Positions 20,392-30,892 are shown, numbered from the stretch's first letter. The stretch: 64,000 nucleotides of DNA from an uncultured Spirochaetaceae bacterium (GCA_964524755.1 CAZGDR010000001.1:39708-103707), one strand, 5' to 3'. The notes: generated from the letters alone by a model not told the origin. Numbers and translations: made by a program.

Positions 20392-21555
20392 TTACTTTAC
20401 ATCAAACCATTTCCCAGTTATTGATTGTTCAATGTGCTCGTTTAAATGATCAGGCTTAAGAATTTCATTCGCACAATCAAGACAGAAATTATCACTCATT
20501 CCAGCTACATAATCAAATACGAGTCGATTGATATTTCCATCGTGTTGAAGATAGGGTTCATACATCTCTTTGACATGTAAGAAGAAGCCAGCAGCCAACA
20601 TGTTTTTTTCTTCCAAATATGGACGTTCTTCCAACCCATAATTGTCTAACAACTTTTGCAAATAATCGATAATCAAATGCAGCAGTCGCGAGAAATAGTT
20701 GCTATATCCTTGTAATAATGGGGAGAGATAAATTGATTTGTAGTTAAACTCTTTCATTGCCAACACTGCTTCAAAAACAGCATCTGAAAAGGCTATACCT
20801 GTTTCAGGATGGGAAGAATCAATCAGATCATTAACGAGCGTGTTAATAATACTGGCATTAGTTTTACCCAATCGTTCAACAACAATAGAGGGAATGGTAG
20901 TGGGGTCAATAATCGAAAGACGACATGCATCTTCATAATCACGACCAAGATAGGCCGCTTGATCTGAGAAACGAACGACCGCAGCTTCCCACGTGGAGGG
21001 GATTGCTTCAGCTCTACTGGTGAGCGCCGATAGATCTTTCTCTTTCCCGCTAGGCATGAGCCGTTGTTCAAAGCTCTCGCCGTTATGACAGGCAATTCCA
21101 TCGCGTACGGCATAGGTTAAATTTAAGCCCTTCCCATGCTCAGTGAGGAAGTCAATAACGCGTAGTGAATTTAGTTCGTGTTCAAATCCTGCAAACCCGT
21201 TCTGTTCCATAATTGAAGCTAGGATCTCCTCTCCTACATGGCCGAATGGAGTGTGCCCTAGATCATGACCAATGCCAATGGCCCATGCCAATTCTGTATC
21301 GAGATGTAGCCCTCTACATACTGCTGTAGCAATTGAGGCAACGTGTAGAACGTGCTCCATGCGCGTGCAGATATGATCATTGCTTGGAGCAAAAAATACT
21401 TGTGTTTTATGTTTAAGTCTCCTAAATGGAGAACTATGAATAATAGCCGTAGTATCGCGATAATATTCGCCACGCACATCACTAGTGCGTGGGTATTTGC
21501 GATTTTCTAGAACTGATGATGGTAATGTATGTATAAAGCGTTTTGTTTTTGACAC
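20392..21555 (-). CDS. dGTP triphosphohydrolase-like HD-domain protein
   Basis: SSPFRRLKHKTQVF, TRMEHVLHVA and GHDLGHTPFGH. Start moved to the GTG at 21555, which has GGAGGT 6 nt upstream. The ORF-track start at 21603 adds 16 unlikely residues. Confidence 0.8.
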   Translation of the reverse strand: MSKTKRFIHTLPSSVLENRKYPRTSDVRGEYYRDTTAIIHSSPFRRLKHKTQVFFAPSNDHICTRMEHVLHVASIATAVCRGLHLDTELAWAIGIGHDLGHTPFGHVGEEILASIMEQNGFAGFEHELNSLRVIDFLTEHGKGLNLTYAVRDGIACHNGESFEQRLMPSGKEKDLSALTSRAEAIPSTWEAAVVRFSDQAAYLGRDYEDACRLSIIDPTTIPSIVVERLGKTNASIINTLVNDLIDSSHPETGIAFSDAVFEAVLAMKEFNYKSIYLSPLLQGYSNYFSRLLHLIIDYLQKLLDNYGLEERPYLEEKNMLAAGFFLHVKEMYEPYLQHDGNINRLVFDYVAGMSDNFCLDCANEILKPDHLNEHIEQSITGKWFDVK

Positions 21556-21601
21556 AGAGTTACCTCCCCTATACTTCCCAAGGCTGACCCTGCATGGTAT
21601 C

Positions 21602-22099
21602 ATGGTTATTATGTTGATGCTACTGGTAGCTATAGGTACAACTCTCCTCTGCTTTTTGTCAGCTGCTGCTACATTGCGGTTTATCCTCTCTCGGCAGGGT
21701 TGGTTTTGGGTCTTACCGTTAGTCCTCTCTCTCTCTTTTCTCTATTTAAGTATAAGCCCATTGTATCAGGTTGCCTCGGGCATGATCAGTGGTTCGTATG
21801 TTGTGGAGATTAGCCCTAACCGTAGTGTGCGTGAGATTATTCCGCTTATTATTGTATTGCTCTGGTACCTTATGATTATCACCTTCCGCAGTGCTTTAAA
21901 ACTTGTGGTTCCAGACAATAAACATCTTTTAGATACCAAGAAGAACCTCAACGAAGCTCGCTATATGCAACGCATAGAATTAAGAAAATATTATAAATTA
22001 GCACGCCGTAAAAGGCGTAAAGAGATTAGAATCAAACGCGAACATGCTGGTACACGCTATCCTCGAAAATGGGTAGCTCTATTCGATGAACATGAATAA
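21602..22099 (+). CDS. Hypothetical small membrane protein with basic C-terminal tail
   Basis: Three predicted TM helices, then KLARRKRRKEIRIKREH. I chose the ATG at 21602 because the ORF-track start at 21485 lies inside the divergent dGTPase gene. No family recognised. Confidence 0.35.
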   Translation: MVIMLMLLVAIGTTLLCFLSAAATLRFILSRQGWFWVLPLVLSLSFLYLSISPLYQVASGMISGSYVVEISPNRSVREIIPLIIVLLWYLMIITFRSALKLVVPDNKHLLDTKKNLNEARYMQRIELRKYYKLARRKRRKEIRIKREHAGTRYPRKWVALFDEHE

Positions 22100-22673
22100 G
22101 GATAGTAGCATGTGTATCGTCTACCTCGTTGGTATTAAACACTCAGGTAAAAGTTCTGTAGGACGCCAAGCCGTTGAATTGTTACACAAGACAAGGGCCG
22201 TTGAATTCACTGATACGGATAATTTGATCCATTCACTGCTACCCTCTCCCTACTTTTCTATCCGTGAATTTTATCGTCATGCAGGGGCGGCGGCTTTTAG
22301 GGAATTAGAATTGAGAGCTTTACAAACATGGCTTGATCAAGTGAGTCCCTCTCTGCACGTTGTGGCGCTAGGAGGTGGAGCTTGTGACAATGAACCACTG
22401 ATCCAGGTAATGCAATCTAGTGGTATAATTATCTATCTTGCTGTTGAAGAGTCAGTCTTACTGCAGAGAATTCTGCAACATGGCATTCCCCCTTTCCTTT
22501 CAGCAGAAGATCCTAGACAATCTTTTCACACCCTTTACGAACGGCGAAACAGCCGATATAGGCAGTTTTCCGATTATGTGCTACAATTATACGATTGCCG
22601 GTCTATACCTGAGAATGCTGAAATACTCGCAAAAACTATCCAAAAAATAGCCGGAAAGAGGGGTCATGTCTAA
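22086..22673 (+). CDS. aroK: Shikimate kinase
   Basis: P-loop LVGIKHSGKSSVGR, the DTD substrate motif and small size. It overlaps the upstream ORF by 14 nt and aroC by 8 nt. Confidence 0.8.
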   Translation: MNMNKDSSMCIVYLVGIKHSGKSSVGRQAVELLHKTRAVEFTDTDNLIHSLLPSPYFSIREFYRHAGAAAFRELELRALQTWLDQVSPSLHVVALGGGACDNEPLIQVMQSSGIIIYLAVEESVLLQRILQHGIPPFLSAEDPRQSFHTLYERRNSRYRQFSDYVLQLYDCRSIPENAEILAKTIQKIAGKRGHV

Positions 22674-23715
22674 GAACACATTTGGAACTACTATAAAAAT
22701 CACCACTTTTGGCGAATCACATGGGGCGGCATTAGGGGTCGTCATCGATGGATTGGAAAGTGGTTTTACCATCGACATAGAGCAATTAGAATACCAAATG
22801 AGCCGGCGTAGACCTGGTGGAAACCCGTTAGGAACGAAGCGACAGGAACGAGATTCGATTGAAATCCTTTCGGGGCTATTTCAAGGTAAAACTACGGGAA
22901 CCCCTGTAGCGATTATGATTCGCAATACGAATCAACGTTCTGAAGATTATGATACTATCGCTACCCTGTATAGACCTGGACACGCAGATCTCACGTGGCA
23001 ACAGAAATTTGGAATACGTGATTGGCGTGGCGGTGGGAGATCTAGTGGTCGAGAGACTGCAGCTCGCTTAGCCGCCGGTGCAATTGCAATGCAGATATTA
23101 GAATCAAAAGGAATTAATATTTTAGCGTATGCTATCCAAATTGGTTCCATCGTGGCAAAAAAACGGGATTATACCCAAATACATAAAAACAAGGTTAGTA
23201 CAGTTGATGCTGCTGCAGCTCAACAGATGGAACAACTTATTGAGCGCATGCGTGAAGAGAAAGATAGTGTCGGTGGAATTATTGAATGCAGGACAACTGG
23301 CCTACCCGCTGGTTTAGGCGAACCGGTTTTTGATAAGGCTGATGCCTTACTAGCCCATGCCATCCTATCGATTGGAGCCATTAAAGGAATTGAATTTGGT
23401 GACGGCTTTGCAGTTGCCTCAGCGCATGGTTCTGAAAATAACGATCAGATGGATGCGAACGGATTCCTCAGCAATCATGCTGGTGGAGTAAATGGTGGGA
23501 TTACCAATGGAGCACCATTAATTTTCCGTACAGTGGTTAAGCCCACTGCTTCGATTGGGAAACCGCAGAAAACGGTCGATATCAATGGTAAAGAGCAAAC
23601 TATTGTTGTCGAGGGAAGACACGACCCTTGTATTTGTGTTCGCATTATTCCGGTAATTGAGGCAATGACTGCAATTACCTTGTTATCATTATGGTATGAA
23701 CAATATGGACGATAA
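22666..23715 (+). CDS. aroC: Chorismate synthase
   Basis: TTFGESHG, RPGHAD, GGGRSSGRETA and GRHDPC signatures. Confidence 0.95.
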   Translation: MSKNTFGTTIKITTFGESHGAALGVVIDGLESGFTIDIEQLEYQMSRRRPGGNPLGTKRQERDSIEILSGLFQGKTTGTPVAIMIRNTNQRSEDYDTIATLYRPGHADLTWQQKFGIRDWRGGGRSSGRETAARLAAGAIAMQILESKGINILAYAIQIGSIVAKKRDYTQIHKNKVSTVDAAAAQQMEQLIERMREEKDSVGGIIECRTTGLPAGLGEPVFDKADALLAHAILSIGAIKGIEFGDGFAVASAHGSENNDQMDANGFLSNHAGGVNGGITNGAPLIFRTVVKPTASIGKPQKTVDINGKEQTIVVEGRHDPCICVRIIPVIEAMTAITLLSLWYEQYGR

Positions 23716-25357
23716 ACCTCTCATTATTCAAAGTGACTTAAGCCTTATGCTGGACGTACATTCACCATCAGCAGAGCAAGCACGTAACGACTTAATAGCA
23801 TTTGCCGAATTGGTAAAATCACCTGAACACGTACACACCTATGCAATTTCTGCCATTAGTTTGTGGAATGCTGCATCGGCGGGTATTAGTGTAGATGAAG
23901 TTCTCAACCGTTTACAAAAATGGTCCCGCTACACCCTGCCTGAAACTGTGGTTTTTCATATCACAGAGATTGGTGGAAGATTTGGAAGTATTCAGTTATT
24001 ACCCTACGATGATGAACATTATCTATTAACTGTTTCCCAACAAAGGTTTACGAGAGAAATGTTAGCCCGTAAACAAATTGCATCTATGCTCATTCAATCT
24101 CCTGATGGATTTCTGGTACCGAAATATCAGCGGGGTGAATTAAAGTTACAACTCATCAAGCTCAATTTTCCAGTTGATGACCGCATCCCATTAACGAAAG
24201 GGGAACCGGTGCCCATGACGTTCCGTTCTGTTTCATCACGTGGCGTCCCTTTTGTGTTACGTGATTATCAACAACTGGCAGCCAACTCGGTGCTAGGCAA
24301 TGGGGGCCCTGGCACGGGCTATGGTACAATTGTACTCCCCTGTGGATCAGGAAAAACAATTGTAGGCATGGAGATAATGACCCGTCTAGCGACACGTACC
24401 CTCATATTAACCACTAACGTAGCCGCAATTCACCAATGGATTGCAGAAATTACCGATAAATTAACCATTGATGCAGATTCTATAGGAGAATATTCAGGTT
24501 CTAGAAAAGAAGTTAAACCGATAACGGTTGGTACCTATCAGGTATTAACTTGGCGACCAGACAAAGAATCTGACTTTCCCCATATGCGCATTCTGAAAGA
24601 GGGCAACTGGGGTCTCATCATTTACGATGAAGTCCATATGTTGCCGGCTCCTGTTTTTAAAATCACGGCTGAATTACAAGCAATACACCGGGTAGGATTA
24701 ACAGCTACCTTAATTCGAGAAGACAATCGTGAAGATGAGGTCTTTTCGTTAGTGGGCCCTAAACGGTATGACGTGCCATGGAGCGAACTAGAAAACCAAG
24801 GCTGGATTGCTGAAGCTGTCTGTACTGAAATTCGAGTATCTCTCCCACAAACATTGGAGATCCCCTATGCTATCGGCACTAAACGGGAAAAATATCGAAT
24901 TGCCAGTGAAAATCCGGCTAAAATACAGATCGTGAAAGACCTCATCGCCAACCATAGTGATGATTTTATTTTAGTAATCGGACAGTATTTGGACCAGTTA
25001 AAAACTATTGCAAAAGAGCTTGGCGCGCCTTTGATTACCGGATCTACCCCTAATCCAAAGCGTGATGAACTCTATAACAGTTTCAGGGAAGGCAAACAAA
25101 GAATTTTAGTTGTTTCAAAAGTGGCAAACTTTGCCATAGACCTTCCTGATGCATCTGTTGCTATTCAAGTCTCGGGAACATTTGGCTCACGGCAAGAGGA
25201 GGCCCAAAGACTTGGACGGATCTTGAGACCGAAACGCAAAAGCTCTCATTTTTATTCATTAGTTACCCGTTACTCTTCCGAAGAAGAATTTAGTGCAAAT
25301 CGACAAAAATTCTTAACAGAGCAAGGGTATAGTTACCATGTGGAGGTTTGGGAATGA
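23696..25357 (+). CDS. XPB/ERCC3/Ssl2-type SF2 DNA helicase-translocase with XPB N-terminal domain
   Basis: The N-terminal domain (PLIIQSDLSLMLDVHSP..AFAELVKSPEHVHTYAISAISLWNAASAGISVDEVLNRLQKWSRYTLPE) is colinear with the human XPB NTD as I recall it. Helicase motifs present: LPCGSGKT, DEVH, GLTATLIREDNRE, QEEAQRLGRILR. Confidence 0.85.
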   Translation: MNNMDDKPLIIQSDLSLMLDVHSPSAEQARNDLIAFAELVKSPEHVHTYAISAISLWNAASAGISVDEVLNRLQKWSRYTLPETVVFHITEIGGRFGSIQLLPYDDEHYLLTVSQQRFTREMLARKQIASMLIQSPDGFLVPKYQRGELKLQLIKLNFPVDDRIPLTKGEPVPMTFRSVSSRGVPFVLRDYQQLAANSVLGNGGPGTGYGTIVLPCGSGKTIVGMEIMTRLATRTLILTTNVAAIHQWIAEITDKLTIDADSIGEYSGSRKEVKPITVGTYQVLTWRPDKESDFPHMRILKEGNWGLIIYDEVHMLPAPVFKITAELQAIHRVGLTATLIREDNREDEVFSLVGPKRYDVPWSELENQGWIAEAVCTEIRVSLPQTLEIPYAIGTKREKYRIASENPAKIQIVKDLIANHSDDFILVIGQYLDQLKTIAKELGAPLITGSTPNPKRDELYNSFREGKQRILVVSKVANFAIDLPDASVAIQVSGTFGSRQEEAQRLGRILRPKRKSSHFYSLVTRYSSEEEFSANRQKFLTEQGYSYHVEVWE

Positions 25358-27363
25358 CTTTACGTACACAATTAGAGGCATGGGAACATGCCCTCGCATT
25401 ATTAGCAGATGATATCTATCTTGATATCGTGCGAAATTTTATAGGAAGGGTCCCTACCCCTTTTCACAAACCAATCCTCACCAAACGATTGACAACTCTT
25501 TTTTCAACTGAAGAGTTTATTCAACGGATTGAAGCTAGTTTTTCAGACCTTGATCGGAGATTGTTAGTTGGAGCTTATGTATTAGGAACCCCAACTCAAG
25601 CTGAGTTGTGCTCCTTATTTGATGAGACGATTCCTTATGCCACCGTCCAACAAAATGTAGTGAATTTAGAAGAACGTCTTTTATTGGTACCGAATCCAAA
25701 TGCTCTTGAGCAACGTGGTGAACTGATGCTGAACCCACTACTTCGAGAGCGATTACTCGCTTCATCTCTTTCCACAAAAGATCTCTTTCCCCCCTCTGCG
25801 GACCATCAGGAACGATATCGTTTTGCTGAAGGTGATCCCAAGATTATTCGAGCATTATTGAGTCTACATATTCATGCTTCTTTAGGTACCAAAGAACGTA
25901 GTGAAAGACAATTACGTAATAAGTTTATTAAGGCAGTGTTTGGTAAAGAGGAGGACGAAGCGGTAGAGCTTATTATCCAATATAATCGGCTACTCTTTCA
26001 CACACAAGCTGTTTGTGAAAAAGGGAAAATCACCCATGTGCCTGCTAAACGAGCCCAGGCTCTACTGAATGCTAAACCGTCAGAGATCCAACAGCTTTTA
26101 TTCAAGACCGCTTGGCAAACAGATCCTGCATTAAATGAAAAACCAATTGAACCCACAATCCTAACCTCTTTCTTTACTATTCTGTCCCAATTATTAGAGA
26201 CGTGTGCTATCTATGAGGAAGAACACCTGTTAATTGCTATCCGTATTGCGGCTTTAAAGAGTGCTCTACCAGTCGGAGATTTTTCTCAATTACTCACTAC
26301 TCTGACGGCAGTGGGACTGACTACACAGAGTGCAGATTTCGAGAATGAAGAGGATGATTCACGTCTTGAACCAACCATTGATAGTGACTTAACTATCTCT
26401 TTTACGCAAAACCTTCCCAGTTTCGAGGGGAACGTAGATATCTATCGTCTCGCTTTAGTGAAGAAGGTCGATGTCGTTAGTTCGTATGAGATTAACAAGG
26501 CCACTATTTTGAAGGCGTTTGATGTGGGGATATCGGTGGATGAGATTTTGGCATATCTAAAAAGACTTACTAAAAATATCCCACAAAGTTTAAAAGACTT
26601 ACTCGGACACTGGAAACAGGAGTATGCAGCCATTACTATCTATGATGGAATCGTAGTGAAAGCTGATGAACGACTCAGTAGAATCATCGATGCCTTGCCG
26701 ACGTTACAACACCATATCATCGCTCAAGTTGGACCGGGTTTGTATCTCTTTTCACGAGATGAAGAGCTCCAATGGCGCGAGATATTAACTTCAACCGGTA
26801 TTGGGTTACTTCCTAGCAGTATCAGTGAAACGCCTAAAGATCCATCACCTGAACTCTCTCCACTACAGGAGACTCAACAACCATCGGCCACCTTTGCAGA
26901 GGTTTTGCAACAATTACCTGCAGAGCGACCTCCAATGGAAGCTCTACCAGATTTCCAAACTGAGTTACTTACTCTTGCCAGAAAGAAAGCTGCTAATAAG
27001 GGTGATAAAGAAGAACTTGAAGCTAGAATTGAACGTAAACTTTTATTAGTTCCTTCCCAAGTTGTTACTTTAGAAGGGCATACAAAAACTATGCAAGCGA
27101 GTGGATTTGATTTCCAAGGCAAGGTGAATCTGTGTAAATCGACCATAAACTCTAAAGTAGACTTACTTGAATTGCAAATGCTCGATGACGACGGGAACTC
27201 TCATATTCTCCTCACCGAAGCCAAGGAACTCATTAGTAGCACTACTGCAAACGAAGCTTCTATTCGAGTTTCTATCTTGCCGCAAGAAGAGGAAAAGGTA
27301 ATCCCTATAGCTAAGGTCTTTCGGGTAAGAAAACTCCGACGATCAATATTCTTCGAGTCCTAA
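25348..27363 (+). CDS. XPB-associated protein with p52/Tfb2-like domain
   Basis: 671 aa, overlapping the XPB stop by 10 nt. The central segment VDVVSSYEINKATILKAFDVGISVDEILAYLKRLTKNIPQSLKDLLGHWKQEYAAITIYDG parallels the p52 segment [41 protein letters not shown]. I do not recognise the flanking ~370 N-terminal and ~200 C-terminal residues. Confidence 0.6.
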   Translation: MGMTLRTQLEAWEHALALLADDIYLDIVRNFIGRVPTPFHKPILTKRLTTLFSTEEFIQRIEASFSDLDRRLLVGAYVLGTPTQAELCSLFDETIPYATVQQNVVNLEERLLLVPNPNALEQRGELMLNPLLRERLLASSLSTKDLFPPSADHQERYRFAEGDPKIIRALLSLHIHASLGTKERSERQLRNKFIKAVFGKEEDEAVELIIQYNRLLFHTQAVCEKGKITHVPAKRAQALLNAKPSEIQQLLFKTAWQTDPALNEKPIEPTILTSFFTILSQLLETCAIYEEEHLLIAIRIAALKSALPVGDFSQLLTTLTAVGLTTQSADFENEEDDSRLEPTIDSDLTISFTQNLPSFEGNVDIYRLALVKKVDVVSSYEINKATILKAFDVGISVDEILAYLKRLTKNIPQSLKDLLGHWKQEYAAITIYDGIVVKADERLSRIIDALPTLQHHIIAQVGPGLYLFSRDEELQWREILTSTGIGLLPSSISETPKDPSPELSPLQETQQPSATFAEVLQQLPAERPPMEALPDFQTELLTLARKKAANKGDKEELEARIERKLLLVPSQVVTLEGHTKTMQASGFDFQGKVNLCKSTINSKVDLLELQMLDDDGNSHILLTEAKELISSTTANEASIRVSILPQEEEKVIPIAKVFRVRKLRRSIFFES

Positions 27364-28800
27364 ATCCTGTTCTAACCGTTTGGGATAATGGTATCCGGAA
27401 AAAGATTCAAATTGGAGTTTTCCTTGGCGGATCAACATGTCTATGCCAAAAAGTATGCGGCATCCCGCTTGCTGGGCTCTCTTTACAAGTGCCGTCTGTT
27501 TTGGCCTATAGATTAACTCATAGACTGTTTGCTTGCTTTTAAATGTATAGTGAGGAATAGGATCGGCTTCATCGTTAGGAGACATACCCACCGATGTCGT
27601 TTGCACGATCAGATCGACATCTTTGTACTTACCAGCATGCTCTAATGAATCAAAGCTCGCCATAGTCTCTTCAGCTAAACCCTGGGCTCGTTTTATGTCT
27701 CGATTTACAATGATTACTTTACACCCATGATTGCGTAAGGCCCATACCACGGCTCGAGCAGCACCGCCGGCTCCAACTACCAAAGCACTCTGCATCGTCC
27801 GAGAATCAATTTCGGTCACTAGAGGTTCTATAAAGCCATAGTAATCGGTATTAGTCCCCTTCCACAAGTTTTTAGCACGCACCACGGTATTACAACTTCC
27901 TATCTGTTTTACTTCCCGCGTAATCTTTCCTAAATAGGGTAATACGTGCTGTTTATGAGGCACGGTAACCGATACTCCCGATATCTTTAACATCTCGGCT
28001 AGAATAAAAAAGGAACGGACTGTATCGACAAGAAAGGGGAGATAGATGGCATTAAAGTTTATTTCATGGAATCCTGGATTTTGAATAAGCGGAGAAAATG
28101 AGTGGAGCACTGGGTTCCCTATTACACCAAATATTTTAGTGCGGTCATCAACTTTATCTGCCCGATAGAGTTCTTTCATTTTCTGAGCTGAAATCTGCCC
28201 TGGAGCTATTTCATTATCACTGCAGTAGGTTAGTATGGATCCTACTTTTTTGTAAAGAATACGGGAAGGTAATCCAAAATCACCCATCCCCAATACAATT
28301 TTATTAGGGACGCTCTCAAGCTCAGTTTTAACCCGGAAAAGAGTAATTAGATCGATCACTGAGTTGGGGGTGACCGCCATTTTAGGAATTTCTCCTCGAC
28401 TCGCGATCTTAGCTATCCTATGAAATATATCGGAGGGGATCCCCGTAAAATCGTGTACCGAACGAATGATGGAGATGCCTCTAGAACGTGCTTTTTGTTC
28501 TATAATAGAACGTTTGACATCATTTTCAATATCTACATAGGCAAAATTACCATCCAGGCACTCCTGCATGAGGATTGCCCTCACCCGCTCCGAGGCCGTA
28601 AAAGCCCCTCCATCGACTTTCCTGCGACACGTTAAGATAACTGGAACTTCTACCAATTCGGGAAATTTGGGGGCTTCTTTACGAGCACTCTCCTCTAAGA
28701 GGTCGAGACGTAGTTCAACTACATCGATATACGAACGGTTGCGCTCATATTGGGATATATTCTCTTCGATTGTACTACCAGTAAGAACCAAACAAATCAT
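27343..28800 (-). CDS. aroDE: Bifunctional 3-dehydroquinate dehydratase (type I) / shikimate 5-dehydrogenase
   Basis: The N-terminal half is AroD-like (MICLVLTG..VVELRLDLL..ILTCRR). The C-terminal half is AroE-like (FGVIGNPVLHSFSP, NTD, VVGAGGAARA). Start moved to the ATG at 28800, which has GGAGGA 6 nt upstream; the ORF-track start at 28941 overlaps the divergent gene. Confidence 0.85.
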   Translation of the reverse strand: MICLVLTGSTIEENISQYERNRSYIDVVELRLDLLEESARKEAPKFPELVEVPVILTCRRKVDGGAFTASERVRAILMQECLDGNFAYVDIENDVKRSIIEQKARSRGISIIRSVHDFTGIPSDIFHRIAKIASRGEIPKMAVTPNSVIDLITLFRVKTELESVPNKIVLGMGDFGLPSRILYKKVGSILTYCSDNEIAPGQISAQKMKELYRADKVDDRTKIFGVIGNPVLHSFSPLIQNPGFHEINFNAIYLPFLVDTVRSFFILAEMLKISGVSVTVPHKQHVLPYLGKITREVKQIGSCNTVVRAKNLWKGTNTDYYGFIEPLVTEIDSRTMQSALVVGAGGAARAVVWALRNHGCKVIIVNRDIKRAQGLAEETMASFDSLEHAGKYKDVDLIVQTTSVGMSPNDEADPIPHYTFKSKQTVYELIYRPKQTALVKRAQQAGCRILFGIDMLIRQGKLQFESFSGYHYPKRLEQDLGLEEY

Positions 28801-28933
28801 CAAAGATCCTCCATAGCCCATATGTAGTGCAGACACATGGGAGGACTCCTTGCATCCCGAGGCACCGTTATGGTACCTTTTATAATACTCGTTACAACAC
28901 GAATCTGCAACACCTTCCAAAATAGAGGAGCAC

Positions 28934-30892
28934 ATGGGCACATTACAAATTCAGAATATCAGCCTCGCCTATGGAGATCGAGATCTTCTTAGTGATATCA
29001 GTTTCACCCTCTCTGGGCGTGCAAGAGCGGCCCTCACGGGGGGTAATGGGTCAGGAAAGTCAACCTTGTTGCGCATCATCAGTGGCGAAATTGATAGTGA
29101 CCATGGTCTCATTGCTACCACAAAGGGGATGCGCATCGCCTACCTTCCCCAATCTGACATCGTCCATGCCGGCACAACTCTCGTTGCAGAAGTAGAAAAA
29201 GCCTACTCACGGTTTGCGCCCCTGTTGGAGAGGCAGACCGTAATTGGGCACGAATTAGCTCAAATAGAGGCCAACCAGCATCATGGTCATTTGACTGAAG
29301 AGTTACACCAGATTCAAGAAACACTATTTTCGAGCTCGTATTTCAGACGGGAAGCTCATATTGAACAGGTTCTCAAAGGACTCGGTTTCTCCCCCATCGA
29401 TTTTTCACGTCGCTGTGAAGAATTCAGCGGTGGCTGGCAAATGCGAATAGCCCTTGCCAAGGTGTTGGTGGAAGATCCAGAAGTGATGTTGCTGGATGAA
29501 CCTACCAACTACCTCGATATAGAAGCTCGTATCTGGTTGCGTAACTATATCCATCAATATAAGGGTGCGGTGATGATGGTTTCTCACGATCAAGATTTCT
29601 TAGACGAGACTATCAATGAGGTGTATGAACTGTTTAATGGAACGCTTACACGGTACAATGGTAATTACACGGCTTATCAGAGACAACGTGAAATGGAATT
29701 AGATCAAATAGAAAAAGCCTATAAAACACAACGTAAAGAGGTTGAAAAAACCGAACAATTCATTGAACGATTCCGCTATAAAGCTTCTAAAGCGAAACAA
29801 GTTCAGAGTCGTGAAAAACAATTAGAGAAATTACAAATTGTTGAAATACCCCCCCATCTTCGCACCCTCTCCTTCTCATTTCCTGACCCTCCCCACAGTG
29901 GTAAAGATGTTATCATGATTGAAGAGCTATCTAAAAGTTATGGAGATTTACACATCTTTGACAGCTTATCGCTAGTGGTAAATAAGGGCGATCGTTTAGC
30001 AGTCACTGGGCGTAATGGAGCCGGTAAGTCAACGTTATTGCGTATGTTAGCCCAGGAGGATAGTGACTATCGAGGAATGTTAGAACTGGGTGCTGGAGTA
30101 ACGCTGGGCTATTTCGCCCAAGACATTGAACATACTCTCAATCCATCCAACACTATTTTACAAGAAGTTGAAACTGTTGCCAACACTTTTGACATTCCCA
30201 GACTCCGTTCATTATTGGGTTCTTTCTTGTTCAGCGACGATGATGTCGATAAGCGTGTCAGTATTCTGAGCGGTGGTGAAAGAAGTCGTTTAGCGTTGGC
30301 CAAGATTCTGTTGCATCCAGCTAATCTTCTTTTACTGGATGAACCTACCAGCCATCTCGATATTAACGCTAAAAACATGCTTCTTGAAGCTTTAAAAGCT
30401 TATCAAGGGACGGTGGTGTTTGTTTCCCATGACACACACTTCATAAAGAATATTGCTAATAGGATCCTCTACCTCAGTGAAGGTCCTCCCGAGTTGTTTG
30501 AAGGAGACTATGATTACTTTGCTTGGAAGTTGGAACAAAAAGAGGCGATTGAACAATCTGAAGCAGAGCAGGTTTCTCCTGTCATATCTGCAAGTAAAGA
30601 GATCGCCAATCTAAACTGGAAAGAGACTAATCGCCTCAAGAACCGCTACCGCAATTTACACAAAGAGGCTGAGGATCTTTTAGTGGCCATTGAAACTAAA
30701 CAAGAAACCATAGCCAAAGTACTGGAAGAGATGGCATTAGAAAAAAACTATTCAGATAGTGAGCGTATAACCACCCTCATTTCAAAAAAAGAGCATTTAG
30801 AGAAAGAACACACGAAGATGGAAGAACTATGGTTTGCAATGCACGAAGAGATGCAAGAGATGGAGGAGAGCGTTGGCTTATCAAATTCCTAA
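28934..30892 (+). CDS. ABC-F family ATPase (tandem ABC domains, no TMD, C-terminal coiled coil)
   Basis: Two Walker A motifs (GGNGSGKST, GRNGAGKST), two signature motifs (FSGGWQMR, LSGGERSR), an interdomain linker, and a charged C-terminal extension. Confidence 0.9.
   Translation: MGTLQIQNISLAYGDRDLLSDISFTLSGRARAALTGGNGSGKSTLLRIISGEIDSDHGLIATTKGMRIAYLPQSDIVHAGTTLVAEVEKAYSRFAPLLERQTVIGHELAQIEANQHHGHLTEELHQIQETLFSSSYFRREAHIEQVLKGLGFSPIDFSRRCEEFSGGWQMRIALAKVLVEDPEVMLLDEPTNYLDIEARIWLRNYIHQYKGAVMMVSHDQDFLDETINEVYELFNGTLTRYNGNYTAYQRQREMELDQIEKAYKTQRKEVEKTEQFIERFRYKASKAKQVQSREKQLEKLQIVEIPPHLRTLSFSFPDPPHSGKDVIMIEELSKSYGDLHIFDSLSLVVNKGDRLAVTGRNGAGKSTLLRMLAQEDSDYRGMLELGAGVTLGYFAQDIEHTLNPSNTILQEVETVANTFDIPRLRSLLGSFLFSDDDVDKRVSILSGGERSRLALAKILLHPANLLLLDEPTSHLDINAKNMLLEALKAYQGTVVFVSHDTHFIKNIANRILYLSEGPPELFEGDYDYFAWKLEQKEAIEQSEAEQVSPVISASKEIANLNWKETNRLKNRYRNLHKEAEDLLVAIETKQETIAKVLEEMALEKNYSDSERITTLISKKEHLEKEHTKMEELWFAMHEEMQEMEESVGLSNS

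Follow-up and report, generated by a model that had tools for sequence, protein, structure and literature searches.

The present analysis points to a bacterial counterpart of a part of TFIIH. Two overlapping genes in a stretch of 64,000 nucleotides from an uncultured Spirochaetaceae bacterium (the window) probably encode, at a likelihood which we put at about 0.7, a bacterial equivalent of the sub-module that XPB and p52 form in TFIIH. The first gene codes for an XPB helicase. The second codes for a partner protein whose alignment to p52/Tfb2 keeps the order of the domains, starting close to the N-terminus and passing through the clutch domain into a DRD/CTD-like unit. To our knowledge, earlier work on bacterial XPB has dealt only with the isolated enzyme, whose activity is rather weak. 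A 2012 paper on bacterial XPB stated that no bacterial p52 homologue and no XPB complex were known (PMC3353954), and in the literature outside subscription-only journals no paper describing a bacterial p52/Tfb2 homologue or partner was found.

The gene for the XPB (ERCC3/Rad25-type) SF2 helicase/translocase lies at 23696-25357 on the plus strand, as do all the features described below, and its ORF codes for 553 amino acids. If translation began instead at the in-frame ATG 23705, the product would have 550 amino acids, which is the length of the database protein P0039. The protein scores 810.1 bits against the NCBIfam model NF045503 (repair_heli_XPB, cut-off 610), with residues 8-549 matching positions 1-547 of the 548 in the profile. 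Pfam places Helicase_C_3 at residues 9-134, ResIII at 187-340 and ERCC3_RAD25_C at 365-549. The first-pass annotation, which was made from the sequence alone, had described a 553-aa helicase with an XPB-type NTD and an SF2 core, and the profile matches agree with it; the ORF is at the stated coordinates. The N-terminal module (23705-24175, residues 4-160 approximately) was delimited by Helicase_C_3 and hhalign and contains the NTD followed by a DRD-like beta-beta-alpha-beta-beta-alpha unit. The motor core (24254-25342, residues 187-549), covered by ResIII and ERCC3_RAD25_C, comprises RecA1 and RecA2 with the Walker A motif GSGKT, the DEVH box and the RED motif. G217, G219, K220 and T221, the residues D311-H314, and R341, E342 and D343 are invariant in an XPB alignment of 12 family members. 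Judged by these profiles and motifs, the first gene encodes a bona fide XPB motor with its ATPase and RED motifs intact.

The partner gene extends from 25354 to 27363 and codes for 669 amino acids, as defined by its ORF and by profile and structure matches. At the junction (25342-25357), a Shine-Dalgarno sequence GGAGG at 25342-25346 is placed 7 nt upstream of the ATG at 25354-25356, which overlaps the TGA of XPB at 25355-25357 as ATGA. By this layout the partner is translationally coupled to XPB. It had been proposed earlier that a 671-aa ORF overlaps the XPB stop codon; an ORF at 25348-27363 is present and the overlap is real, but the start has been revised. TTG at 25348 was dropped in favour of ATG 25354, which is almost certainly the start codon, on the basis of the GGAGG spacing, the ATGA overlap and the length of the database protein P0001, which is 99% identical to the partner and has 669 amino acids. 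A promoter and terminator scan of 21400-27700 gave no excess over shuffled sequences. The family of the partner is large and, clustered at 50% identity, amounts to 2211 sequence clusters. Its relatives bear the NCBI name 'helicase-associated domain-containing protein', and Pfam PF27388 is recorded on them.

Co-occurrence of the two genes in other genomes had been suggested as a check, and they were found to be linked well beyond the window. In 70 of the 77 Spirochaetota loci, XPB is followed directly by the partner gene, with a median start-to-stop offset of -3 nt (70 related loci); in the other seven, Treponema vincentii included, the partner is missing from the sequenced flanks or located elsewhere. 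The linkage was also seen in Paenibacillus, in two Deinococcus species and in Actinomyces and Tsukamurella, that is, in Bacillota, Deinococcota and Actinomycetota. Support is weaker in Cyanobacteriota, where Gloeocapsopsis has an ORF upstream which the partner profile matches with an E-value of 0.002 and Acaryochloris has a similar ORF without a score. The tight translational coupling together with the linkage across phyla suggests a stoichiometric complex.

The surroundings of the pair are also conserved, with nrdR, aroK, aroC, aroDE, ABC-F and maf as neighbours across Sphaerochaetaceae. This bears on another reading of the pair, in which an SF2 helicase would form the basis of an anti-phage or mobile-element defence module. 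Some XPB copies are indeed carried by large plasmids or by chromids, some copies are near toxin-antitoxin genes or IS elements, and the XPB of the window resembles the PbeA models of PADLOC, as a generic SF2 helicase only. On the other hand, PADLOC gave no match at all to the partner, and spirochaete XPBs in the alignment have 64-89% identity to that of the window, consistent with vertical inheritance. No match to the partner was found among phages and plasmids by tblastn, although BLAST is a poor guide for a protein that diverges this quickly; an HMM search does recover relatives borne on plasmids or chromids. Effector domains, of the nuclease type or any other, are absent from the pair. As PADLOC has no defence family for the partner, the defence reading was rejected, and it is considered extremely improbable. 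The pair serves a chromosomal housekeeping function rather than a mobile element.

The partner carries a copy of the XPB NTD. This clutch domain (26356-26625), equivalent to MD2 of p52, was recognised by Helicase_C_3, PDB profiles and hhalign. Its Helicase_C_3 match scores 37.3 bits against a cut-off of 34.2 (E 3e-9), and a helix within it, IPQSLKDLLGHWKQE, aligns with p52. Fragments of eukaryotic Tfb2 are annotated with this Pfam family too. An almost verbatim motif repeat between the two proteins had been pointed out before, namely GISVDEVL in XPB (residues 63-70, 23882-23905) and GISVDEIL in the partner (26527-26550). Both positions, recomputed from the BLASTP alignment, are correct and the likeness goes beyond chance, as the N-terminus of XPB matches partner residues 335-501 by BLASTP with 35% identity over 68 amino acids (E 1e-7), and the two family profiles align by hhalign with a probability of 95.5% and an E-value of 1.3e-8 over 149 columns (XPB 4-160 with partner 335-485). 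The clutch region against p52 gave 96.3% and an E-value of 1.5e-9. The clutch is therefore about as similar to the NTD of its own XPB as it is to p52.

This near equality is an argument for a different reading, in which the partner merely shares a duplicated XPB NTD and is neither a p52 homologue nor an XPB-binding subunit. The same DNA or ligand would then be bound by two proteins acting separately, and the long alignments to p52 would be helical noise. Other observations fit with it as well. A full Pfam scan of the window partner returned Helicase_C_3 as the sole family and NCBIfam returned nothing meaningful; Tfb2 (PF03849) and Tfb2_C (PF18307) in particular had no match in it at E<=1. Among 70 relatives, 17 do match Tfb2 at E<=1, with 2.6e-7 as the best value, which speaks for p52; in P0038, the one relative in which the match was located, it consists of the clutch only (profile positions 285-353). 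The N-terminal region of the partner, when compared alone with the N-terminus of p52 by hhalign, gave an E-value of 0.005 and a probability of 7%, and for this reason no sequence-proven homology is claimed for it.

Against the reading of a bare duplication, a profile of 83 partner sequences searched against the PDB ranked three p52 orthologues (yeast Tfb2 at 9.7e-6, Chaetomium p52 at 2.9e-5 and human p52 at 9e-5) above human XPB (2.5e-4). When the full length of p52/Tfb2 was aligned by hhalign, the probability was 97.4% with an E-value of 1.4e-11 over 368 columns, and partner 26-436 corresponded to p52 1-410. With the p52 N-terminus added, the hhalign score rose from 70.9 to 94.3 while the alignment grew to these 368 columns, and the domain order was unchanged. 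The human p52 query is identical to PDB chain 28jm_D at 462 of 462 positions. The yeast Tfb2 query was pieced together from alignments and lacks about 28 residues, and a homologue search seeded by a Tfb2 fragment returned exon-sized fragments only.

Structural comparison gave the same ranking. The AlphaFold2 model of the partner has a pLDDT of 86.1 and a pTM of 0.83, and its 13 best Foldseek matches in the PDB are p52/Tfb2 chains only, with E-values from 7e-6 to 3.5e-3 over 347-532 columns. These alignments take in nearly the whole target at 11-15% identity, with TM-scores which are low, at about 0.2, and which count in favour of the bare duplication. XPB chains follow with 115-181 columns and E-values of about 1e-2 or weaker. 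The order of the PDB profile search, the gain from the p52 N-terminus, the structural matches and the stoichiometric complex suggested by coupling and linkage make it unlikely that the partner is a duplicated NTD and nothing else. The p52/Tfb2-like character assigned to the partner at the outset thus stands, on a Helicase_C_3 score above the cut-off, the three p52 orthologues ranked above XPB, the full-length hhalign result and the 13 structural matches. The profile searches that had been recommended did find an XPB-NTD/p52-clutch domain in it.

About 370 N-terminal and 200 C-terminal residues of the partner had earlier been left unplaced. They can now be assigned to an array, a module and a barrel, with the array remaining weak by sequence. 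The array (25360-26310) is, in the AlphaFold2 model, rich in helices with short beta-hairpins and aligns to the NTD and MD1 of p52 in Foldseek and hhalign comparisons. Within the full hhalign alignment partner 26-330 corresponds to p52 1-300, and the conserved NLEERLL...NPLL of the array aligns with LLPGG..LILNPIF of p52. The region is probably a p52-like array, a homology drawn mostly from the Foldseek matches with TM-scores of about 0.2, the sequence support being weak. Behind the clutch there is a beta-beta-alpha-beta-beta-alpha module (26632-26808), defined by AlphaFold2 and hhalign, which has the topology of the DRD-like unit of XPB and the position of the p8-binding CTD of p52. In the model its strands are residues 429-432, 436-439, 457-462 and 465-468 and its helices are 441-454 and 473-485. 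The hhalign alignment to XPB runs through this module, whereas that to p52 ends at its first strand. A poorly conserved linker of low confidence (26809-26883; residues 495-504 and 507-512 have a pLDDT of less than 50) leads to the C-terminal module.

The C-terminal module (26884-27339) was described with AlphaFold2 and Foldseek and has no p52 counterpart; about 160 C-terminal residues of the partner are without a p52 equivalent. It comprises helices at residues 513-562, a conserved motif EAxGxDYxGK and a five-stranded WYL/Sm-like barrel at residues 583-664. Residues 505-671, modelled separately, reached a pLDDT of 86.6. The best fold matches of the barrel are the WYL domains of the sensors PafBC (5.2e-4), BrxR (rmsd 2.9 A over 76 columns), CapW and DriD, and the N-domain of Pelota scores similarly. 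The WYL-type fold in PafBC, DriD and CapW binds single-stranded DNA. The main role of the partner could then be that of a WYL-type sensor or transcription regulator resembling these proteins, one which senses single-stranded DNA and controls xpb or a damage regulon, and its N-terminal domains, being helix-rich and possibly winged-helix, would suit such a protein. However, a Pfam WYL match is absent from the full partner (E<=1) and from 27 C-terminal segments of the family (E<=10), in which nothing consistent appeared, nor was an HTH match found in either. The partner differs from the WYL sensors in its domain order too, and single-stranded DNA binding by it is putative. The WYL-like assignment is at the level of the fold only. 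In the partners from Paenibacillus and Deinococcus the HMM match stops before the barrel, so that the barrel may be missing there, and the best structural match at full length is p52 and not a regulator. A 1:1 operon partner coupled through ATGA and copying the docking domain of the helicase suits a subunit better, and a primary role as regulator is quite unlikely. No nuclease domain was detected in the partner by Pfam or NCBIfam or among the structural matches from Foldseek, in agreement with the first-pass annotation, which had recognised no nuclease motif.

Taken as an XPB with a p52-like subunit, the pair can be set beside known systems. TFIIH with its XPB-p52(-p8) unit (human GTF2H4/p52, yeast Tfb2) has the same XPB motor with NTD, RecA1/2 and RED, and the partner aligns with p52 in the order NTD, MD1 and clutch (MD2), then has a unit at the position of the CTD. 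As in TFIIH (PMC6422496), its clutch copies the NTD of XPB. In contrast to TFIIH, the two genes form an operon without the context of p34, p44, p62, XPD and CAK; no homologues of p34, p44 or p62 occur among the neighbouring genes and no separate p8 gene in the window. The spirochaete partner is longer than p52 by about 200 amino acids, with an extra helical and WYL/Sm-like module. Archaeal XPB likewise stands beside a dedicated partner, Bax1, which modulates its ATPase (PMC7672443, PMC13024598). However, Bax1 is an XPG-related nuclease on the ThM and HD2 of XPB, whereas the spirochaete partner carries no nuclease and has an XPB-NTD-like domain, so that the XPB NTD is the implied docking site. 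XPB of Mycobacterium tuberculosis (Rv0861c/ercc3) belongs to the same NF045503 family, and actinobacterial XPB genes have a 'helicase-associated domain' gene close by. When studied alone, the M. tuberculosis enzyme required a large molar excess to unwind DNA, perhaps because its activator was missing.

In TFIIH the p52 clutch and the XPB NTD form a pseudo-symmetric dimer (PMC6422496), and the ATPase of XPB is both stimulated and limited by p52 and p8 (PMC7708078). By analogy we infer binding of the partner to XPB, stimulation of the ATPase, translocase activity and a cellular role for the pair. The partner clutch would pair with the XPB NTD through beta-sheets as a pseudo-symmetric heterodimer, and the beta-beta-alpha-beta-beta-alpha unit of the partner would sit against RecA2. 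Both contacts together would determine how XPB hydrolyses ATP and translocates on double-stranded DNA, the task of p52 with p8 in TFIIH. More tentatively, the N-terminal array and the WYL/Sm-like barrel could target the motor to DNA structures, and the pair might in that way open or remodel DNA where it is damaged or where complexes have stalled. A translocase made of two proteins is not guaranteed, since XPB with p52/p34/p8 and XPA had no translocase activity without the full TFIIH core complex (PMC7708078).

In Deinococcus, a small ORF located between the genes for XPB and the partner matches the beta-beta-alpha-beta-beta-alpha unit of the partner (hhalign E 1.1e-4) and is a candidate p8-like subunit. 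It is possible, though doubtful, that prokaryotes invented the XPB-p52 core of TFIIH and that bacteria still use it as a self-contained machine for opening DNA, with a p8-like third subunit in some lineages. The machine would act at junctions of single- and double-stranded DNA sensed by the WYL-like domain, possibly with RNA polymerase. Mutants of M. tuberculosis in ercc3 are hypersusceptible to rifampicin (PMC10534295).

A conserved, operon-encoded p52-like partner is a candidate reason for the weak activity of XPB alone. The XPB-p52 unit of TFIIH, including the duplication of the N-terminal module of XPB into its regulator, may not be restricted to eukaryotes, and the added WYL-like domain hints that the pair may be recruited through single-stranded DNA. 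If the idea of a prokaryotic invention were true, the pair would offer a tractable bacterial model of how TFIIH opens promoters and lesions, and would account for the origin of p52 and p8.

The helicase gene (23696-25357, + strand, 553 aa in the ORF listing) and an ORF overlapping its 3' end are both present where the first-pass annotation had placed them. The helicase matches NCBIfam NF045503 end to end with 810 bits (cut-off 610), and Pfam assigns to it the XPB N-terminal domain (Helicase_C_3, aa 9-134), ResIII and ERCC3_RAD25_C, in agreement with the earlier description of an XPB-specific N-terminal domain (NTD) and an SF2 core. The GSGKT, DEVH and RED motifs are invariant across the XPB family. 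The nearest relatives belong to Sphaerochaetaceae (Spirochaetota), and the aligned spirochaete XPBs are 64-89% identical, a slow drift as compared to the fast-drifting downstream protein (about 19-71% among the relatives compared). The protein is a true bacterial XPB with an intact motor. The downstream p52/Tfb2-like gene, hereafter the partner, was first listed as an ORF of 671 aa (25348-27363, + strand) which opens before the XPB stop. That ORF exists, but its start has to be moved. An ATG start codon at 25354 follows GGAGG (25342-25346) at a distance of 7 nt and runs into the XPB stop TGA (25355-25357), giving the overlap ATGA. TTG at 25348, rejected as the start, would stand essentially without a spacer to GGAGG, and a database protein 99% identical to the partner has 669 aa. 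The partner gene is therefore placed at 25354-27363 (+), coding for 669 aa and translationally coupled to XPB.

The partner carries a copy of the XPB N-terminal module. The near-identical octapeptides pointed out earlier, GISVDEVL in XPB (23882-23905) and GISVDEIL in the partner (26527-26550), were recovered at the same nucleotides when positions were recomputed from the BLASTP alignment. The XPB N-terminus aligns with partner residues 335-501 at 35% identity over 68 residues (E 1e-7), and an alignment of the two family profiles spans 149 columns (95.5% probability, E 1.3e-8); this resemblance is not due to chance. The single significant Pfam match in the partner was again Helicase_C_3 (aa 346-440, 37.3 bits against a cut-off of 34.2, E 3e-9). 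The same scan gave no Tfb2, Tfb2_C, WYL or nuclease family, which agrees with the earlier failure to recognise a nuclease motif. The partner family is large: a whole-library profile search gathered 2211 cluster representatives with E<=1e-3, of which 736 reach E<=1e-30. Its members are full-length proteins of about 620-780 aa named 'helicase-associated domain-containing protein' at NCBI, and almost all of the database relatives of the partner (P0001-P0038) bear a very recent Pfam family, PF27388.1, which may already describe the N-terminal region.

Searches with profiles of the partner family favour p52. A 29-sequence partner profile placed yeast Tfb2 (1.5e-3) narrowly before XPB among all PDB sequences. 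With 83 sequences, yeast Tfb2 (9.7e-6), Chaetomium p52 (2.9e-5) and human p52 (9e-5; partner 297-449 to p52 240-408) all ranked above human XPB (2.5e-4). Pfam Tfb2 was matched by 17 of 70 partner relatives (best 2.6e-7) and Helicase_C_3 by all 70; in the one relative in which it was located, the Tfb2 match sits at the end of the model that corresponds to the clutch, the XPB-NTD-like domain (MD2) of p52. Since eukaryotic Tfb2 database fragments bear both annotations, the two models describe one domain superfamily. In hhalign, the partner family was compared with full-length human p52 (462/462 identical to PDB chain 28jm_D), most of yeast Tfb2 and fungal fragments, giving 97.4% probability and E 1.4e-11 over 368 columns. 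The domain order is the same, partner residues 26-436 standing opposite p52 1-410, and the most conserved N-terminal motif of the partner, NLEERLL...NPLL, falls opposite LLPGG..LILNPIF of p52. The score was 70.9 against clutch-only fragments and 94.3 once the p52 N-terminus was added. However, the N-terminal 328 residues alone match the p52 N-terminus weakly (E 0.005, probability 7%), and homology of this region is not proven from sequence alone.

The AlphaFold2 model of the partner (29-sequence alignment, pLDDT 86.1, pTM 0.83) consists of a helix-rich array with short hairpins (aa 5-321), an alpha/beta domain (345-426), a beta-beta-alpha-beta-beta-alpha unit (429-485), a low-confidence linker (486-512), helices (513-562) and a five-stranded barrel (583-664). 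In Foldseek, each of the 13 best PDB matches was a p52/Tfb2 chain taken from a TFIIH structure of yeast, human or Chaetomium, with E values of 7e-6 to 3.5e-3 over 347-532 columns and targets of 289-449 residues. XPB chains aligned over 115-181 columns at E about 1e-2 or weaker, sharing only the NTD and the DRD, the XPB module after it. TM-scores against p52/Tfb2 were about 0.2, as expected of flexible multidomain chains. The predicted structure argues well for a domain order common to the partner and p52, and lends moderate support to N-terminal homology. On the published p52 scheme of NTD, MD1, MD2 (clutch) and p8-binding CTD (PMC7708078), the partner reads as an NTD-like and MD1-like array, a clutch, a unit in the CTD position and an extension. 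The unit at aa 429-485 aligns along its whole length with XPB residues 97-160 and with p52 at its first strand only; it is called DRD/CTD-like. About 370 N-terminal and 200 C-terminal residues, unplaced in the first-pass annotation, can now be assigned to the p52-like array, which is supported by structure and weakly by sequence, to the beta-beta-alpha-beta-beta-alpha unit and to a C-terminal barrel that p52 lacks.

Residues 505-671, modelled separately (pLDDT 86.6), found their best PDB structure matches in WYL-domain proteins, namely PafBC (5.2e-4), BrxR (rmsd 2.9 A over 76 columns), CapW and DriD, including the ssDNA-bound C-domain of the last. The same regulators had matched weakly in the full-length search, and those matches therefore stem from this module. 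The Pelota Sm-like N-domain scores similarly, and Pfam at E<=10 matched no family to the module in 27 relatives. At the level of fold the module points to a sensor of nucleic acids or ligands, and it is not a demonstrated WYL domain. Immediately ahead of the barrel lies the motif EAxGxDYxGK (27085-27120, partner aa ~580-592), strongly conserved among 83 relatives, with A, G, D, G and K invariant or nearly so. It matched no known family and could be a ligand- or nucleic-acid-binding site.

The two genes co-occur widely, as the earlier reading would predict. An XPB-seeded scan with one genome per GTDB species gave 80 loci; these are the closest relatives, and almost every one bears a spirochaete label. 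The partner lies directly downstream of XPB on the same strand in 70 of the 77 loci with at least 300 nt beyond XPB, at a median start-to-stop offset of -3 nt. The exceptions are seven loci (L014, L015, L020, L025, L066, L067, L071); L066 is Treponema vincentii, and L025 has its partner on the opposite strand, about 5 kb upstream. Sphaerochaetaceae conserve the order nrdR, HD-phosphohydrolase, aroK, aroC, XPB, partner, aroDE (convergent), ABC-F, maf, and the XPB-partner-aroDE core reaches other spirochaetes (42/80 loci). This is housekeeping synteny and not an island. As aroK (22086-22673) overlaps aroC (22666-23715) by 8 nt and aroC overlaps the XPB start (23696 or 23705), XPB and the partner appear to stand at the distal end of a shikimate-pathway operon. 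The convergent aroDE (27343-28941, - strand) shares 21 nt with the 3' end of the partner (27343-27363). Contigs L023, L029 and L068 are labelled Bacteroidaceae, Selenomonadaceae and Flexilinea, yet have Sphaerochaetaceae-type synteny; L051, labelled Lentisphaeria, shows no more than a spirochaete-like XPB (59% identical) and the partner. All four are probably mis-binned metagenome-assembled genomes. Membership of the partner in a defence system was rejected (no PADLOC match), and the phages and plasmids searched gave no BLAST-level match to it.

The linkage extends to other phyla, where XPBs of 46-49% identity were found by tblastn on large plasmids or chromids and their neighbours were judged by annotation and HMM scoring. 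The partner is downstream in Paenibacillus, where it overlaps XPB, and in two Deinococcus species, where a conserved ORF of about 110 aa intervenes; in Actinomyces it is the divergently transcribed neighbour of XPB, and in Tsukamurella it lies about 3.5 kb upstream. In the Paenibacillus and Deinococcus partners the HMM match stops before the C-terminal module. In two cyanobacteria an unannotated ORF of about 620 aa ('hypothetical protein') lies immediately upstream of XPB (Gloeocapsopsis, L082 3125-4999; Acaryochloris, L086 2629-4497). The Gloeocapsopsis ORF, the only one of the two scored, matches the partner HMM weakly (E 0.002) and has a clutch-like C-terminus with GRSVDELRNFL; it may represent a divergent partner class without the barrel. 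The small Deinococcus ORFs (D. aquaticus pDATS01, L083 6737-7084; D. taeanensis, L087 6241-6570) are 55% identical to each other. The C-terminal 60 residues of the small ORF align with the partner beta-beta-alpha-beta-beta-alpha unit (hhalign E 1.1e-4, probability 57%), and it could be a free-standing p8/Tfb5-like third subunit. A sigma-70 family sigma factor (L085 1003-2214) separates the partner gene from XPB in Tsukamurella, and rifampicin hypersusceptibility is reported for Mtb ercc3 mutants (PMC10534295); both point loosely towards a connection with transcription.

Among known systems, the XPB-p52(-p8) part of TFIIH comes closest. The archaeal XPB-Bax1 pair is comparable only in that XPB has a dedicated partner; Bax1 is a nuclease which docks elsewhere on XPB (PMC7672443, PMC13024598). 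We consider the partner to be an XPB-binding p52 homologue with a probability of about 0.7. By homology with TFIIH structures and biochemistry (PMC6422496, PMC7708078), its clutch would pair with the XPB NTD through beta-sheets in a pseudo-symmetric dimer and the unit after the clutch would contact RecA2; the XPB ATPase would thereby be stimulated and tuned. Fungal XPB with p52, p34, p8 and XPA hydrolyses ATP but fails to translocate unless the full core is present (PMC7708078). The searched passages of a 2026 XPB review do not mention a bacterial p52 homologue. No description of the partner was found in the searchable literature, in line with the earlier remark that the function of such pairs in bacteria is not established; the PF27388 description or other literature could mention one. 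The shared domain is already flagged generically in databases, and the link is therefore discoverable. The first-pass observation is confirmed, and its interpretation of the partner as p52-like is supported and extended. The spirochaete genes are described here as an operon-encoded bacterial XPB-p52-like pair with an added sensor-like domain.
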